Shown here: positions 4,282 through 15,132 of the stretch, piece after piece
Layout of the letters: each line of letters starts with the position of its first letter
Numbering within the stretch: the first letter of the stretch is position 1
Origin: Candidatus Nanopusillus sp.
GTDB taxonomy: Archaea; Nanobdellota; Nanobdellia; Nanobdellales; Nanobdellaceae
Direction: 5' to 3'
Length of the DNA stretch: 32,000 bases
NCBI GenBank assembly: GCA_049414405.1
Contig: JBMSAQ010000015.1
Span: 60,001 to 92,000, forward strand
Program-made: the position numbers and the translations under genes
Notes under the pieces: model-generated
Database searches by the model: none
What the model was told of the DNA's origin: nothing
Seen by the model: only the letters and a program-made list of their open reading frames with translations

Positions 4282-5901
4282 TTACATAGAGTCGTAAATA
4301 TTTATATATTCATTTATATTATTTTTCCAATCAAATTTCTTAGATATATCATACATTTGCTTTTTTATTTCCATTTTTTCATATAAATCTAAATTATAAT
4401 ATTGTAAAAATTTATTATATATGAATTCTTTATCCAAACTATGTGGATCTATACTAATTATATATTCATGATTTATATTTTTACTTATTAAATTTCTATA
4501 AAATCCTGTTTTATTGGATAAAACAATCGGAATAAAATTATTCAATGCTTCTAAAGGTGTGTATCCATAAGGTTCATACCTTGATAAAAATATGCCAAAA
4601 TCAAATACTGGTAATATATATTCCAGATCCAAACTAAATAATACATCATTTCCAAGATAAACTGGAACATATATAACTTTTACATAATTATTTCTATCAT
4701 TATTTAAATTATTTTCTCTTAATTTCTCAATTATGATATTACTTTCCACATCATGAGTATATATTGGTGGATTCTTATTCTTCATTCTGCCTAATTTATC
4801 TAATATGTTTTTTCCATTATATAAAGATCTTATGATTAAATGTATGTTTTCTTCTATATTTTCCTTCAATTTAATATACTCTTTGTAAGATCTAATTATA
4901 TCGCTATTTTGTCCTTTAATATTGTAAGGGACAAAAATAAATGCAATAGTATTTAATCTATTTTCGTCCAAGTATTTTAATAAATCAATAAATAGATCTA
5001 GACCCTTATTATATGGCTCATATCTACCAATTGTATATATCAATAAATATTTTTCTGGTAGATCATAATATGGATAAAAATACCAGGTCAAGAATTCATC
5101 CATCCATTTCTTTGAAACTTTATAATAATTAAATAACTCTTTTTCCTTTACGTTTATATAATTATATGTTATATAATCTGATTTTCTCCTATATATTTTA
5201 TATGCTTCTTCCCCCAAATTATCAGATACTACTGTAAATATATCAGAATTTAATATTGCTTGCTTTTCCAATTGATATTTTGAATTTATTCCTAATCTAT
5301 ATGAATCTTTATCTGGATCTATAATATCCAATGCCTTCCCCACATTTACATTTTTTTCAGATAAAGTTCTTCCAATAACTGTTCCATGAATCGTTAATAT
5401 TGTCTTATAATTTAAATTATTTTTCTTTATATATAATATTGTACCTCCAGACAGCCATTCATGCGCATGTAATATTTTTTTCTCATTAAAATATTTATCT
5501 AACTTTTCTAAAAATATACCAACGGCAACAGACCATAACAATGGTTCATCAAAAGTAAAGTCCGAATTTAAAGAATCTATTTTATACCATTCCCAATATT
5601 TATATTTCCATAAATTTCTTTCTTTATTGAAAAATTCATCAAATTCTATTAGGAATACATTTGGTTTTGATTCAATATTCCAATATCCATAATGTACTTT
5701 AATCCCATCTAATTGATAGTTTATTTCTTTTATATAACTTGGAGGATATAATTCAATAAATTCTGAACTATTTTTATATGGACCTATCAGAAAATATTTA
5801 TCATTATACTTTTCTTTTATATACTTTGCCTTAGTATACAATACTGTATATATTCCTCCCACTTTATTGCATACTTCCCAAGATTGTTCAAATAACATCA
5901 T
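4282..5901 (-). CDS. Glycogen (starch) synthase, eukaryote-type GT3 family
   Basis: LFEQSWEVCNKVGGIYTVLYTKAKYI..YFLIGPY matches the GT3 N-terminus (FE-A-EVANKVGGIYTV...IGP). Further collinear motifs are HAHEWLSGG, TIHGTVIGR, IGRYEPYNKGLDLFI, PPIYTHDV and SRYEPYGYTPLEA. Confidence 0.88.
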   Translation of the reverse strand: MMLFEQSWEVCNKVGGIYTVLYTKAKYIKEKYNDKYFLIGPYKNSSEFIELYPPSYIKEINYQLDGIKVHYGYWNIESKPNVFLIEFDEFFNKERNLWKYKYWEWYKIDSLNSDFTFDEPLLWSVAVGIFLEKLDKYFNEKKILHAHEWLSGGTILYIKKNNLNYKTILTIHGTVIGRTLSEKNVNVGKALDIIDPDKDSYRLGINSKYQLEKQAILNSDIFTVVSDNLGEEAYKIYRRKSDYITYNYINVKEKELFNYYKVSKKWMDEFLTWYFYPYYDLPEKYLLIYTIGRYEPYNKGLDLFIDLLKYLDENRLNTIAFIFVPYNIKGQNSDIIRSYKEYIKLKENIEENIHLIIRSLYNGKNILDKLGRMKNKNPPIYTHDVESNIIIEKLRENNLNNDRNNYVKVIYVPVYLGNDVLFSLDLEYILPVFDFGIFLSRYEPYGYTPLEALNNFIPIVLSNKTGFYRNLISKNINHEYIISIDPHSLDKEFIYNKFLQYYNLDLYEKMEIKKQMYDISKKFDWKNNINEYINIYDSM

Positions 5902-6560
5902 CTAAATATAATATCAAATATACTTCTCTTCCTTTTATCACCAGTTATACAATATGCTAGCTCATCTATATATTTTAATGCTTTTGATCTTTCATTATAA
6001 AATACAATAGGTTGATATTGAAATTGATAATTAATAAAGTCTTTAATTATTGGAATAACTGTATATATTTCTTTCTTAAATACATCTTCTATAAAGTCTA
6101 TTTCAATACTCTTATCATATTTATTTAATACTATTTTAACCTTATTTTTATCTAAAAGATCGTGTAATTTTTTATTTACATATAAAGAATAGAAATCTGG
6201 ATTTATTACTAAGAAGTTTATATCTGATATTTTTTCAATACTTAGTATATAATTTATGTTTGGAAGTGCATCAAAGATAATTACATCATAATATCTTTTC
6301 AAATAATTTAAATCATTAATACTAAAATCTAAATTATCTATAATTTTTAAATGAAAATATGGTAATACCTTTATTCCTTGATATACCTTATTTCCAAACA
6401 ATTTTTCATTATTTAAAAATATTAAATTTGAAGAATATATTCCGTTTGTATCTATTATTAATGCTTTATAGTTATATTCCTTCTTTAAATATGCTGCAAG
6501 ATTGTTTGCCAATGTTGTTTTTCCAACTCCCCCCTTTAATGATAGAAAAGATATTATCAT
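5898..6560 (-). CDS. ParA/MinD-family P-loop ATPase (deviant Walker A)
   Basis: SLKGGVGKTTLANNLAAYL is a deviant Walker A with the signature lysine, LIIDTN is an A' box, and VIIFDALP is a Walker B. There is no CxxC pair, which argues against Mrp/NBP35. The basic/hydrophobic C-tail is KRKRSIFDIIFR. ATGA overlaps occur on both sides. Confidence 0.85.
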   Translation of the reverse strand: MIISFLSLKGGVGKTTLANNLAAYLKKEYNYKALIIDTNGIYSSNLIFLNNEKLFGNKVYQGIKVLPYFHLKIIDNLDFSINDLNYLKRYYDVIIFDALPNINYILSIEKISDINFLVINPDFYSLYVNKKLHDLLDKNKVKIVLNKYDKSIEIDFIEDVFKKEIYTVIPIIKDFINYQFQYQPIVFYNERSKALKYIDELAYCITGDKRKRSIFDIIFR

Positions 6561-6871
6561 AATCCTAATAATTTTGAAAATTTTATTTCAGCTTCTTCTT
6601 TTGAAAGTTTTTTCTTTACATGTACTTCATGAGCTTTTAAGAAATTTCCTATAATTTTTATATATTCATCTTTATCTTTTGTTTCCATTATCTTTTCATA
6701 TAAAACTTCCTCTTTTAATGCATTTTTTATCCATTCTGGAAAGTGATCCTTATGATAATTAAATTTGTCATAATCCGCATTATATAACCAAATTAATAGA
6801 TCTTGAAGACTATATAGTTTTTGTCCATCAATAGTAATAAATGCTTCTTTTTCATTATCAACTTCAATCAT
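6557..6871 (-). CDS. Small soluble protein of unknown function, first gene of the ParA-GT3 operon
   Basis: 104-aa ORF with a charged, K/E-rich helical C-terminus and no hydrophobic segment. Its stop overlaps the ParA-like start (ATGA). I could not assign a family. Confidence 0.5.
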   Translation of the reverse strand: MIEVDNEKEAFITIDGQKLYSLQDLLIWLYNADYDKFNYHKDHFPEWIKNALKEEVLYEKIMETKDKDEYIKIIGNFLKAHEVHVKKKLSKEEAEIKFSKLLGL

Positions 6872-6907: not shown

Positions 6908-8083
6908 ATGACTGGTATTGTATTTTATTTCCATGCGCATCAGCCAAGAAGAATAAGATATTATTCTTTTTTTGATATAGGATCAAAAAATTATTTCAAC
7001 GATGATCTAAATAAAAGGATATTAGATAGAGTTGTATATAAATGTTATAAACCAGCATTAGAAATGATATACGATAATATCATAAAGTACGATATAAAAG
7101 TATCATTTTCAATTTCTGGAACATTAGTTGAACAATTAGAATTATATCATCCAGAAATTCTAGAACTATGGAAAAAATTAATAGATACAGGAAATGTAGA
7201 AATTGTATCAGAAACATATTATCATTCATTAGCATATTTAATTGATAAAGATGAATTTATTAATCAAATAAAATTACATAGAAAAAAAATAAAGGAAATA
7301 TTTAATTATAAATCTAGAAGCTTTAGGAATTTTGAACTTGTATTTAATAACGAAATTGGAGAAATTGTATATTCTTTAGGATATAAAGTAACATTGACTG
7401 AAGGAACTGAAAAAATTTTAGGAAATAGGAGTCCAAATTATGTATATAAATTAAAAATAAATAATTTAAGGCTATTATTAAGAAATTATAGATTATCTGA
7501 TGATATAGGATTTAGGTTTACAAATAAGAACTGGTTAGAATATCCATTAACTGCAGATAAATACTATTTATGGTTAAAGAACACTCCTGGGGATATAATA
7601 AATATATTTATGGATTTTGAAACAATAGGGGAACATATATGGAAAGAATCTGGAATATTTGAATTTTGGAACAAGCTATTTGAATATATTGGAAAAGAAA
7701 AATATTTTGAAACATATAATATAACTGAAGCTGTTGAAGAATTTAATTATAAAGATGAATTGGATATACCTGAACTAATATCATGGGCAGATATTGAAAG
7801 AGATCTATCTGCATGGATTGGAGATAGTATACAAAGAGAAGCTTTAGATTATTTAAGAGAACTATATAAAAAGTTTAAAAATGACGAAAAAACATTAAAT
7901 ATATTGAGATATTTATCAACTTCCGATAATTTCTATTATATGAGTCTAAAATATAATAGCGATGGTGATGTACATAAATATTTTAGGGAAGAGGCTTTTG
8001 CAACCCCTTATGATTCTTTTATATCGTATATGAACATTTTAAGAGATATAGAATTAGACCAAACTATTGAAAATAGAAATTAA
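6908..8083 (+). CDS. Glycoside hydrolase family 57 enzyme (alpha-amylase-like)
   Basis: The N-terminal FYFHAHQPRR (GH57 HQP region), GNVEIVSETYYH and MDFETIGEH resemble conserved GH57 regions. 391 aa. Confidence 0.8.
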   Translation: MTGIVFYFHAHQPRRIRYYSFFDIGSKNYFNDDLNKRILDRVVYKCYKPALEMIYDNIIKYDIKVSFSISGTLVEQLELYHPEILELWKKLIDTGNVEIVSETYYHSLAYLIDKDEFINQIKLHRKKIKEIFNYKSRSFRNFELVFNNEIGEIVYSLGYKVTLTEGTEKILGNRSPNYVYKLKINNLRLLLRNYRLSDDIGFRFTNKNWLEYPLTADKYYLWLKNTPGDIINIFMDFETIGEHIWKESGIFEFWNKLFEYIGKEKYFETYNITEAVEEFNYKDELDIPELISWADIERDLSAWIGDSIQREALDYLRELYKKFKNDEKTLNILRYLSTSDNFYYMSLKYNSDGDVHKYFREEAFATPYDSFISYMNILRDIELDQTIENRN

Positions 8084-12843: not shown

Positions 12844-15132
12844 TCAGTATAAAATAAATATTATTATTCCAACTATTACACCAATCAACAACCCAATATT
12901 TAAATAATTATATTGAACTTTCTTATTGAATTGTACAGTAATATTTAATGGTTGATTCACAATAAAATTATATCCATCCTCATAATAAATTGTATCATAA
13001 AAGAATCCAGATTCAATATACTTGGCTGGTAAAATATTTATTACAGTTCCTTTATTTAAAAAAATAGAAGTATTTCCATAAGTATTTACAGAATTATTTA
13101 TGGAAATATTTACTAAAAATGGTGTATTAATATTTACTAAATATTGATATACACAATAGCTAGATAGATCAATATTTGTTGGAGAGGACATATTTATTGT
13201 TACGTTGTTCTGATTGCAATAAAATCTTTCATAATTATTTATATAACTAATTGTATTTATTAATATAGTTACATTATTATTTGCATTTATATAAAAACTC
13301 GTATTTCCATAATATGTATTATTGTTTATTGTATAATTAAACGGTGAGGATATATTTAATTGATACTGCAAATAACAATAATCAGATATATCAACAACTT
13401 TTGAAGTATTTATATTTAATGTTATGTTATTTTGACAATAATATCGATAATTTTCAAAATTATATATTTGATTTAAGTATATATTCAACAGATCTTTTGC
13501 ATAAAGATAATATATATTATTATAATGTGTTTCATTTAAATAATTTCCAGAAATTGTAAAATTTATTCCAATACTGTTATTTATAATAACTAAATAATAT
13601 TTAATATAGTTTGTAGAGATATTATAATCCTTATTTACTAGCAGACTTATATTTACATACTGATGGGAATAATCTATACTATAATATACCCCGTTTATTG
13701 TTAAATTACTTAATACATATAATGTATTGTTTTGATAAACATATATTGGAATTTTCACATTAAAGATTAGCCCAAGTGGATATTGATAATTTATGTATGA
13801 GTTGTTGTAAGAATAATAAACAGATATATTATAGTTTGTGATATTTGCATTTCCTAAATACTTTGGATAAAAAGGTCCTACAGATAAATTTACAAATCCT
13901 TGCGATATTATATTCGCACTAATATTTGAAGAATATTCTGCAGTATTAGCACCATAATTAAATATTGAAGGACTTGGGGTAAGATAATAACTTCCATTAT
14001 TTTTATAAGAATAATATAAACCCAAAAATCCACTAATATTTTTTACATCTATACAAGCCCCATTTCCTGGTCCACCAATAACCAATTCTAAATTCTTAAT
14101 ATTTCTAGAACTTGTAAAATTGGGAAAAATAACTATACTACCATTTGACGGAATTAATAATGTAACATTATCGTACCAATTTATATTTTGTCCATCTAGA
14201 CTATAACCAAATTGTATTACTGGATGGGAATTATTTTGAGTAATATTTATTATTAAATATACATTTAATGGATATTGTAAAGAAAAATGATTTGTTGCAT
14301 ATACATAAAAATATTTATCATCATATTTACTTATTATTCCATTACCTTTAATTAAATTATTCGATGATAGATTATGATTAAAAGAGGTAAAATTCCATAT
14401 ATTATTAGCAAAAATAAAATATCTACCGGTATTGTTTATTAATAAAACATTCTGTAACCAATAATGTTGGCCATTACTTAATTCTAGAATCGCATTTAAT
14501 TGTATTGAGCCCGAATCCTCACCTAAAAAAGTATTAGAACATAAAGAACTAACATATGAACTAAAATTATCTAAATAAATTTTTCCAATAACTTTATTTG
14601 TCTTAACATTATATCCATAAACGATTCTATTGTTAATATATATACCATAATCAGAAATTCCTATTGGAAAATAAATATTTTTTTCAGATTGATTTGTCAA
14701 ACTATATATAAAAAAATAAGATGCATTTTGTGTATTGTTATTATAAATTATTATGTAATAATTTTCTGAAGATAGATTTATACTTTGATTTATATAATTT
14801 GTATATCTTTGATAGATTGATGTAAAATTTTCGCTGTTTTTAAAATTTTGATAATTTTGTTGATCCATTATATAAAAATTTAAAGGAATTGATGAACTAA
14901 AATATATGTTTAAATACTGGTTTGATGAATTTATCAAATAATAATAATAATATTCTGGATATAAAATATAAAAATAACCATAAGAACCTTGTTCCAAATT
15001 ATATAAATTTAGATGACTTATATTTATTGGATTTATTGGAACATTAAATAATGTTGATGAATAATTTTGTGAATATATATTAAAAAAATTAGATATCAAA
15101 GTTAATAATGCAAATAGTTTTATTTTTTTCAT
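12844..15132 (-). CDS. Thermopsin-family (peptidase A5) secreted protein with a duplicated Cys-containing C-terminal module and a C-terminal membrane anchor
   Basis: Signal peptide MKKIKLFALLTLISNFFNIYSQ. Thermopsin-like blocks are FPIGISDYGIY, GSIQLNAILE...HYWLQNVLL...FANNIWNFTS and LVIGGPGNGA...LGLYYSY...PSPSIFNYGANTAEY (compare Sulfolobus thermopsin AGIASFGLY, LQFNIVL..YWLQDV..DNVWNLT, VWGGGGNGA..LGLYY..FGADTAEA). I counted more than 40 N-x-S/T sequons by eye. The C-terminal helix is IGLLIGVIVGIIIFILY. Confidence 0.8.
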   Translation of the reverse strand: MKKIKLFALLTLISNFFNIYSQNYSSTLFNVPINPINISHLNLYNLEQGSYGYFYILYPEYYYYYLINSSNQYLNIYFSSSIPLNFYIMDQQNYQNFKNSENFTSIYQRYTNYINQSINLSSENYYIIIYNNNTQNASYFFIYSLTNQSEKNIYFPIGISDYGIYINNRIVYGYNVKTNKVIGKIYLDNFSSYVSSLCSNTFLGEDSGSIQLNAILELSNGQHYWLQNVLLINNTGRYFIFANNIWNFTSFNHNLSSNNLIKGNGIISKYDDKYFYVYATNHFSLQYPLNVYLIINITQNNSHPVIQFGYSLDGQNINWYDNVTLLIPSNGSIVIFPNFTSSRNIKNLELVIGGPGNGACIDVKNISGFLGLYYSYKNNGSYYLTPSPSIFNYGANTAEYSSNISANIISQGFVNLSVGPFYPKYLGNANITNYNISVYYSYNNSYINYQYPLGLIFNVKIPIYVYQNNTLYVLSNLTINGVYYSIDYSHQYVNISLLVNKDYNISTNYIKYYLVIINNSIGINFTISGNYLNETHYNNIYYLYAKDLLNIYLNQIYNFENYRYYCQNNITLNINTSKVVDISDYCYLQYQLNISSPFNYTINNNTYYGNTSFYINANNNVTILINTISYINNYERFYCNQNNVTINMSSPTNIDLSSYCVYQYLVNINTPFLVNISINNSVNTYGNTSIFLNKGTVINILPAKYIESGFFYDTIYYEDGYNFIVNQPLNITVQFNKKVQYNYLNIGLLIGVIVGIIIFILY
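13018..13458 (-). repeat. Tandem duplication of a roughly 73-aa Cys-pair module inside the thermopsin-like gene (aa 559-705)
   Basis: FENYRYYCQNNITLNINTSKVVDISDYCYLQYQLNISSPFNYTINNNTYYGNTSFYINANNNVTILIN aligns with NNYERFYCNQNNVTINMSSPTNIDLSSYCVYQYLVNINTPFLVNISINNSVNTYGNTSIFLNKGTVINILP. Both Cys positions and the YGNTS motif are conserved. Confidence 0.75.

Follow-up and report, generated by a model that had tools for sequence, protein, structure and literature searches.

The closest described system to the gene pair reported here is BcsR-BcsQ, in which the genes for a 7-kDa protein and a MinD-like ATPase lie upstream of that for a glucan synthase (PMC7840130; PDB 6yay, 6yb5). The catalytic aspartate of BcsQ is replaced (Cys/Ser39), and the protein, which hydrolyses little ATP, was obtained as an ATP-bound dimer on purification. 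The C-terminal helix of BcsR docks at the MinE site of BcsQ, and BcsRQ is needed for the assembly and localisation of the cellulose synthase (PMC7840130). We analysed a stretch of 32,000 nucleotides from Candidatus Nanopusillus sp. (contig JBMSAQ010000015.1, positions 60,001 to 92,000), here called the window, where the genes for a 104-residue protein and a 220-residue ATPase of predicted MinD/ParA fold precede the gene for a glycogen synthase of glycosyltransferase family 3 (GT3). By analogy, we propose with a probability of about 45% that the two proteins form a two-component accessory module of the Nanopusillaceae glycogen cluster, which would act as a BcsRQ-like, ATP-gated tether or assembly switch.

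The pair shares with BcsR-BcsQ the order of the genes, with the small-protein gene directly upstream of the gene for the MinD/ParA-fold ATPase in an operon with a glucan synthase, and the substitution of the switch-I aspartate, which is an asparagine (Asn39) in the window ATPase. The two systems differ in several respects. BcsQ is without the cis lysine of the Walker A motif (Thr15), whereas the window ATPase retains KGGVGKT. The bacterial system makes a secreted beta-glucan in Gram-negative bacteria, whereas the product here is a cytoplasmic alpha-glucan in archaea, and the BcsE/F and cyclic-di-GMP components of the cellulose system have no counterpart at this locus. The role of BcsR-BcsQ is not the partitioning of a cargo. 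We know of no homology between BcsR and DUF5752, the family to which the 104-residue protein is assigned below.

MinD, including the archaeal structures 1g3q, 1ion and 1hyq, gave the best sequence and structure matches to the window ATPase. Both have a deviant Walker A motif with the signature lysine and a basic, amphipathic C-terminal helix of the membrane-targeting kind. The window ATPase differs from MinD in the asparagine at the position of the catalytic aspartate and has about 40 residues fewer. MinC and MinE are absent here, and the partner is the DUF5752 protein.

The 220-residue protein was modelled with AlphaFold2 (AF2) at a mean predicted local distance difference test score (pLDDT) of 89.4, and the model was compared with known structures by Foldseek. 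The MinD entries 4v02/4v03 and 1hyq were matched with template modelling (TM) scores of 0.76-0.77 (E ~2e-10), SegA with 0.75 and BcsQ with 0.62-0.71. The model predicts an alpha-beta-alpha fold of the MinD/Soj type. The sequence agrees with the deviant Walker A consensus KGGxxGK[ST] and its signature lysine, and the Walker B motif reads DVIIFD. In switch I, the place of the water-activating aspartate (MinD D40, Soj D44) is taken by Asn39, which is invariant in the subfamily alignment A2 and aligns with the 'IDAD'/'VDGD' motif of MinD and with the position that was altered in the D40A structure 4v02. Since the water-activating aspartate is replaced, hydrolysis is expected to be slow or triggered by a partner. 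A D-x-N switch I was also found in 83 of the 143 next-best relatives. The tail RSIFDIIFR, which follows a KRKR cluster, has the highest helical hydrophobic moment (0.82) among the 212 nine-residue windows of the protein; AF2 places a short helix at residues 214-218 with low pLDDT. The tail is kept both within the subfamily and among related MinD-like proteins of archaea, and the pattern 'TGE..(K/R)..S(I/L)..(K/R)I..(I/L)F' is common to many of the 143 relatives. Judged in silico, this segment is a candidate membrane-targeting helix like that of MinD. The first-pass annotation of this DNA had already pointed out the GT3 synthase, the signature lysine, the lack of the CxxC motif of Mrp/NBP35 carriers and the basic, amphipathic tail, and all of these were found again.

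The Pfam and NCBIfam scores of the ATPase all lie far below the family cut-offs. BcsQ proper was rejected (TIGR03371, 35 bits against a cut-off of 158; Pfam CBP_BcsQ covers residues 3-49 only), as were MinD proper (TIGR01969 minD_arch, 46 bits against 201.75; TIGR01968, 26.7 bits against 212.9) and ParA proper of ParABS systems (NF041546, 44 bits against 180). An Mrp/NBP35 Fe-S carrier was rejected on the single cysteine of the protein and the lack of a CxxC, and a BY-kinase on a tail, GDKRKRSIFDIIFR, that contains no tyrosine (TIGR01007, 17 bits against 108). In an exhaustive profile search of 1.84 billion representatives, 7 sequences were found at E<=1e-30, followed by a gap to 103 bits, and the ATPase subfamily is isolated by its sequence. 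The nearest relatives encoded in metagenome loci L030 (6001-6798) and L112 (2637-3428) are 263-265 residues long, with a D-(G/A)-N switch I and the conserved C-terminal tail; they are divergent from a small open reading frame (ORF) and a DHH/RecJ-Cdc45-like gene. They look like a separate orthologous group, possibly with a link to replication or segregation.

The 104-residue protein had been regarded as an orphan in the first pass, a label that could not be kept. Its identity across the Nanopusillaceae is 42-99% and the AF2 model has a pLDDT of 87, with values >94 over residues 1-80. The ORF is real, as it is conserved and gives a confident model. The window protein alone had no Pfam or NCBIfam match, but weak matches to PF19027 (DUF5752) were found in 9 of 11 orthologues (best E 1.2e-5), and explicit PF19027 scores were 19.6-22.8 bits against a cut-off of 23. 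A profile search led to remote relatives in Altiarchaeales, Woesearchaeota and others that have an invariant H-x4-KNDFYNWI motif, and several of these carry a precomputed PF19027 assignment. When the 104-residue family was aligned with the KNDFYNW family by hhalign, the probability was 99.4% (E 9e-22). The top Foldseek match of the model was 4cso_D, the OrfY protein of Thermoproteus tenax (probability 0.84, TM score 0.50, root-mean-square deviation 2.0 A over 79 columns). The profile of the family alignment A1 touches 4cso weakly (E 0.75), and a search of the PDB with the A3 profile did not reach it. By these profile and fold comparisons, the protein is most probably a single-repeat DUF5752/OrfY-like domain and a member of a large DUF5752-like family.

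OrfY and PF19027 have the motif 'H..(N/K)DF..W(I/V)...L....LA' in common with the 104-residue protein, but consist of two repeats (~210 residues) where the window protein has one. The gene orfY presumably lies beside treT, which encodes a GT4 enzyme, in T. tenax. The Nanopusillaceae protein has no transmembrane helix and ends in a conserved helix, KEEAE.EFIK, after which the ATPase gene follows. A bacterial DUF5752-like match in Sporocytophaga was found among GH10 and GH16 genes and not among glycogen genes.

The neighbours of DUF5752 genes were examined in a metagenome scan with the KNDFYNW pattern, which gave 80 loci and, after removal of redundancy, 71. A gene for glycoside hydrolase family 57 (GH57), a GT4/5 enzyme, GT3 or the glycogen debranching enzyme (GDE, GH133) was present within 2.5 kb in 30 of these 71. 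With the remainder of the same contigs as the background, 0.21 GH57 genes and 0.21 GT3 genes were expected within 1.5 kb of DUF5752, and 27 and 10 loci were observed, respectively. GH57 is the most constant neighbour, and the GT4/GT5-like gene is kept in the cluster across every lineage examined. An Altiarchaeales contig has the genes for GT4/5, GH57, DUF5752, GT3 and GDE, with DUF5752 overlapping both of its neighbours. On a Woesearchaeota contig, GT4/5, GH57 and two DUF5752 genes were found with GT3 nearby. Neither contig has the ATPase. Two or three tandem DUF5752 paralogs often occur per cluster, and at locus L058 (6759-8264) both domains are fused in a 501-residue protein with GH57 at residues 20-305 and DUF5752 at the C-terminus (425-486). 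The fusion gene of L058 is followed by a GH15 glucoamylase-like gene. The alpha-glucan cluster of DPANN type, with GT4/5, GH57, GT3 and GH133, has DUF5752 as a hallmark companion.

A MinD/ParA-like gene lies directly downstream of DUF5752 in 12 of the 71 loci, with 13 cases observed against 0.62 expected (P ~2e-13). Nine of the 12 paired ATPases are of a ~272-residue type and are encoded on low-GC contigs with archaeal genes (archaeal-type prolyl-tRNA synthetase (ProRS), cupin-type phosphoglucose isomerase, translin). Their genes overlap the DUF5752 partner by 14 nt, and six of the nine also follow GH57 or GT4/5. The order GT4/5-GH57-DUF5752-(DUF5752)-MinD-like ATPase occurs on low-GC archaeal metagenome contigs that are unrelated to the Nanopusillaceae loci. 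The other three are of a different, 315-residue bacterial MinD-like type. They were found on bacterial-looking contigs of 40-45% GC (L076 7989-9384, L086 901-2416, L108 1980-3496), where a DUF5752 protein of 75-77 residues is followed by the 315-residue ATPase with a canonical D-x-D switch I and then by a DnaJ-domain protein. This is a third, independent pairing of DUF5752 with an ATPase, and no glycogen genes are nearby. In several archaeal metagenome loci, a gene for a PAS-domain protein of ~215 residues precedes the DUF5752-ATPase pair or GT4/5-GH57 (L082 3013-3663, L094 348-992, L101 6598-7245), and in L094, L098, L101 and L106 a translin gene comes next, on the other strand.

The presence of the ATPase was then compared with the C-terminus of the long DUF5752 paralogs. 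When the paralog ended in a transmembrane helix, which was the case in 11 loci, the ATPase was found in none. When the paralog was without this helix and ended in K[IL]KEVY[GK]F, the ATPase gene came next in 8 of 8. Among these loci, the transmembrane tail and the ATPase exclude each other (Fisher P = 1.3e-5).

Within the Nanopusillaceae, whose genomes are ~0.6 Mb in size, the 220-residue protein shares 90-97% identity with proteins from Candidatus Nanopusillus and Nanobsidianus. The genes for GDE, GT4/5, GH57, the small protein, the ATPase and GT3 were found together in all 15 loci of GTDB species representatives that have the small protein, and one hot-spring metagenome locus shows the same six genes. 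In every contig-placed member of the ATPase subfamily, down to 45% identity of the ATPase, the triad of small protein, ATPase and GT3 is joined by 1- or 4-base overlaps. The link to glycogen genes noted in the first pass is thus not confined to this genome, as it extends to the 15 family loci and to the low-GC archaeal metagenome contigs; the link of the pair to glycogen genes is real and general. A contig scan with patterns of the 104-residue family returned Nanopusillaceae only, but says little on absence elsewhere, for example in Nanoarchaeum equitans, because the patterns are too specific. A 3-kb contig labelled Aenigmatarchaeota (L008, GCA_038997915.1) has the same triad as the Nanopusillaceae loci L005-L007, and its label may reflect mis-binning. 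In Nanopusillus acidilobi, the small protein is annotated as uncharacterised (Nps_00375), the ATPase as 'CobQ/CobB/MinD/ParA ATPase' (Nps_00380, arCOG00589) and the synthase as a glycosyltransferase (Nps_00385) (PMC4935971).

The analogy with BcsR-BcsQ and the complementarity of transmembrane tail and ATPase led us to propose the following mechanism. Binding of ATP would dimerise the ATPase, and the dimer would sit on the membrane via its C-terminal amphipathic helix. There, it would grip the C-terminal helix of the DUF5752 protein at the site that is used by MinE and BcsR, and the aromatic-rich DUF5752 domain might bind either the glucan or one of the glycogen enzymes. Like BcsR-BcsQ, the pair would serve as a tether or assembly switch that is gated by the nucleotide, and not as an oscillator or a gradient-forming partitioner. 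In clusters without the ATPase, the transmembrane tail of the long DUF5752 paralog may do the same anchoring permanently. The gene associations, the motif states, the folds and the complementarity are what the data show; the physical contacts, the membrane binding, the slow hydrolysis and the cargo are what we infer.

Several observations weigh against this proposal. More than half of the 71 DUF5752 loci have no glycogen neighbours, and the census of the 71 found no recurrent neighbour common to these loci. A co-occurrence of the ATPase and its partner with GT3 or GH57 genes in other genomes, which the first-pass annotation had suggested to look for, was confirmed for DUF5752 with GH57 and GT3, but no GT3 gene was found within 8 kb in the metagenome loci that carry the ATPase. 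In general, the pair goes with the GT4/5-GH57-DUF5752 core and not specifically with GT3. The asparagine at the catalytic position might still permit hydrolysis. The assignment of the ATPase to the MinD/ParA fold held, but its profile scores do not single out a sister group: those against the DUF5752-adjacent group, against the group next to RecJ and against bacterial ParA all fall at 40-73 bits. BLAST slightly favours the RecJ-adjacent group of 264 residues, which has no DUF5752 link, and the nearest relatives that could be placed (P0089, P0096) adjoin a RecJ/Cdc45-like gene and not DUF5752. The depositors of 4CSO named OrfY a transcription factor. In the N. acidilobi proteome, glycosyltransferases including the GT3 orthologue Nps_00385 and the debranching enzyme were detected, but neither Nps_00375 nor Nps_00380 (PMC4935971). 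Finally, the genes for transcription factor B, proteasome alpha and SBDS also keep their order across the Nanopusillaceae loci. Conservation of the triad inside this family is weak evidence because gene order there is frozen generally, unrelated genes included.

These last points agree with the ATPase being a coincidental neighbour that has a general role in division, segregation, the archaellum or another process and happens to be encoded here in a compact, order-frozen genome. The whole region is syntenic, the closest relatives of the ATPase stand next to the RecJ/Cdc45-like gene, and the protein escaped detection alongside the glycogen enzymes. Also, the three minus-strand genes are joined by ATGA start/stop overlaps at 6557-6560 and 5898-5901, as the first-pass annotation had reported, but of the 20 same-strand neighbour pairs in the window 8 overlap, five of them by exactly 4 bases. 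The ATGA coupling carries little weight because such overlaps are the local norm, and the translational coupling that had been read from it was dropped as evidence. What speaks against a coincidence is that DUF5752 and an ATPase also stand side by side, independently, in other lineages, where the ATPases are of two other types, and that the ATPase gene lies precisely between DUF5752 and GT3, two genes that adjoin each other in Altiarchaeales. A further arCOG00589 ATPase, Nps_03280, is encoded elsewhere in the N. acidilobi genome and is available for general roles. The ATPase of the glycogen cluster is not the sole MinD/ParA protein of the cell, and its reading as a general housekeeping ATPase is therefore weakened. 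A coincidental neighbourhood is very unlikely in our view. Nps_03280 is preceded by the uncharacterised Nps_03275 and adjoins ProRS and DPH2.

The name given to 4cso raises the possibility of a regulatory module, with DUF5752 as a sugar-responsive regulator that is modulated by the ATPase and acts on the expression of the glycogen genes and not on the enzymes. The PAS-domain genes ahead of the pair in several metagenome loci and the gene for an AAA and winged-helix regulator within the window cluster are consistent with this. For a DNA-binding protein, however, a fusion to GH57 and tail-anchored paralogs are unexpected, no helix-turn-helix family was detected in the 104-residue protein, and the two or three tandem paralogs per cluster also argue against it. 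We give such a regulator little chance of being correct.

Alternatively, the two proteins could work in solution as an assembly or stability factor. Like BcsRQ, they would be a 'one-shot' chaperone by which GT3 or GT4/5 is stabilised or activated or the priming of the glucan is aided, and the membrane would be incidental. BcsRQ provides the precedent, the genes for DUF5752 and GT3 overlap directly in Altiarchaeales and at other loci, and the primer question is open for the archaeal GT3 enzymes (PMC11046441). This possibility is unlikely, since the amphipathic tail of the ATPase is conserved and the transmembrane tails of the alternative DUF5752 paralogs argue that the membrane location matters. 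In addition, the ATPase and the small protein were undetected in the proteome where GT3 was detected.

The first-pass annotation had proposed a positioning or partitioning system for the glycogen synthase or its granule. In such a ParA-type system, the ATPase would set up dynamic patterns on the nucleoid or the membrane that depend on ATP, and the small protein would be a McdB- or ParB-like adaptor, by which glycogen granules or synthase foci are spaced or are partitioned to the daughter cells. As in McdA-McdB and other ParA-adaptor systems, an ATPase of the ParA/MinD family and a small charged partner are encoded beside the genes of the possible cargo, and the DUF5752-ATPase pairing recurs. 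McdA-McdB-type systems use the nucleoid as a matrix and partner-stimulated ATP turnover, whereas the features here point to membrane binding and slow hydrolysis: the asparagine is found in every member of the subfamily, gradient and oscillator systems need stimulated turnover, and the MinD-like tail points to the membrane and not to DNA. The transmembrane-anchored DUF5752 paralogs appear to stand in for the ATPase, and this speaks for a static anchor and not for movement. Near the pair in the window, nothing resembling ParB or a centromere was seen, and no homology of the 104-residue partner to McdB or ParB was found in the family and profile searches. The cells are only 100-300 nm across (PMC4935971). 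Of the earlier proposal, a likely functional pair tied to glycogen genes stands, but no observation favours positioning of a cargo on the nucleoid, and the ParA-type system is quite unlikely. The MinD-type helix, the exchange of aspartate for asparagine and the size of the cells fit the slow, membrane-binding switch better.

A wider form of the tether or assembly switch can be put forward tentatively, and is on the whole doubtful. DUF5752 and the D-x-N MinD-like ATPases might constitute an unrecognised two-component system, widespread in DPANN, that organises alpha-glucan synthesis at the membrane and in which the ATPase replaces the transmembrane anchor by a nucleotide-gated one.

The features of the pair and of the surrounding genes are collected in the table. 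The base composition of the window is ~24% G+C and the coding share is 94%.

Table. Features of the DUF5752-ATPase pair and the neighbouring genes, in positions of the window
Feature	Position	Strand	Basis or remark
104-residue protein, putative single-repeat DUF5752/OrfY-like domain	6557..6871	-	ORF, family alignment A1, profile and fold comparison
Conserved core of the 104-residue protein, residues 9-62	6686-6847	-	family alignment A1
Degenerate signature motif FNYHKDHFPEWIKN of the 104-residue protein	6722-6763	-	
C-terminal helix EVHVKKKLSKEEAEIKFSKLLGL of the 104-residue protein	6560-6628	-	proposed ATPase-binding segment
220-residue ATPase, divergent predicted MinD/ParA fold (SIMIBI)	5898..6560	-	Pfam AAA_31, CbiA and ParA matches; AF2; Foldseek
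Deviant Walker A LKGGVGKTT, residues 8-16, signature Lys9	6513..6539	-	invariant in alignment A2
Switch I LIIDTNGI, Asn39 at the water-activating Asp position (MinD D40)	6438..6461	-	
C-terminal basic cluster and amphipathic helix GDKRKRSIFDIIFR, candidate membrane-targeting sequence	5901..5942	-	
GT3-family glycogen synthase, 539 residues	4282..5901	-	PF05693 Glycogen_syn, E 1.4e-71
Multi-pass membrane protein, 212 residues	3610..4248	-	33 bp downstream of GT3
GH57 glycoside hydrolase, divergent from the triad	6908..8083	+	PF03065, E 1.7e-73
GT4/GT5-like alpha-glucosyltransferase, 398 residues	8054..9250	-	Glycos_transf_1, Glyco_transf_4 and Glyco_transf_5 matches
GDE_C (GH133-type amylo-alpha-1,6-glucosidase), 534 residues	9301..10905	+	PF06202, E 1e-18
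AAA_14-type ATPase with C-terminal winged helix	10907-11821	+	TrmB, HTH_5 and MarR matches

The 539-residue synthase is assigned to GT3 by a PF05693 score of 242 bits against a cut-off of 27, with residues 5-491 covered. The 212-residue membrane protein encoded downstream of it had no match in Pfam, PADLOC or PHROG. ORFs of 185-206 residues were found at the same position in four other Nanopusillaceae loci (L001, L003, L005, L010), and the annotation of Nps_00390 in N. acidilobi gives a membrane protein that has 5 transmembrane helices. This protein may be a fourth member of the operon and would fit a membrane-linked role.

On the other side of the pair, the GH57 and GT4/5 genes converge with an overlap of 30 bases at 8054-8083. 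The AAA_14/winged-helix gene begins 1 bp past the debranching-enzyme gene and is kept after GDE in L001, L003 and L026; its product is a candidate sugar-responsive regulator of the glycogen cluster. Further along, a 762-residue protein (12844-15132, minus strand) is very rich in Asn, Tyr and Ile and has an N-terminal hydrophobic segment and a C-terminal transmembrane helix; this is probably a surface protein, glycosylated or of the S-layer type. For the genes studied here, an origin from defence systems or phages has no support, as no PADLOC match was obtained and PHROG gave only a generic ParA.

The first-pass annotation had known of no ParA/MinD system dedicated to glycogen, and our searches of a literature library likewise found nothing that links DUF5752, OrfY/TreT, 4CSO or MinD/ParA ATPases to glycogen or glycogen synthase. 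New here is the proposed two-component module of MinD/ParA type, for which both the partner family and the client pathway are new. The glycogen metabolism of archaea is almost unexplored, and according to a 2024 review the archaeal GT3 synthases are uncharacterised and their priming, regulation and localisation are open (PMC11046441). The analysis provides a function-linked context for DUF5752/OrfY and for a large unstudied clade of MinD-like proteins without the catalytic aspartate. It also suggests that the logic of BcsRQ, in which a small protein and a poorly hydrolysing MinD-like ATPase control a glucan synthase, may apply to a cytoplasmic storage glucan of archaea. For these ultra-small ectosymbionts, the stored glycogen may be the sole energy reserve when they are detached from their host (PMC4935971). 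If the wider form of our proposal is true, it would describe the first system of the ParA/MinD family that is devoted to a storage polysaccharide, and the DUF5752/OrfY domain would gain a function as an enzyme- or glucan-binding adaptor.

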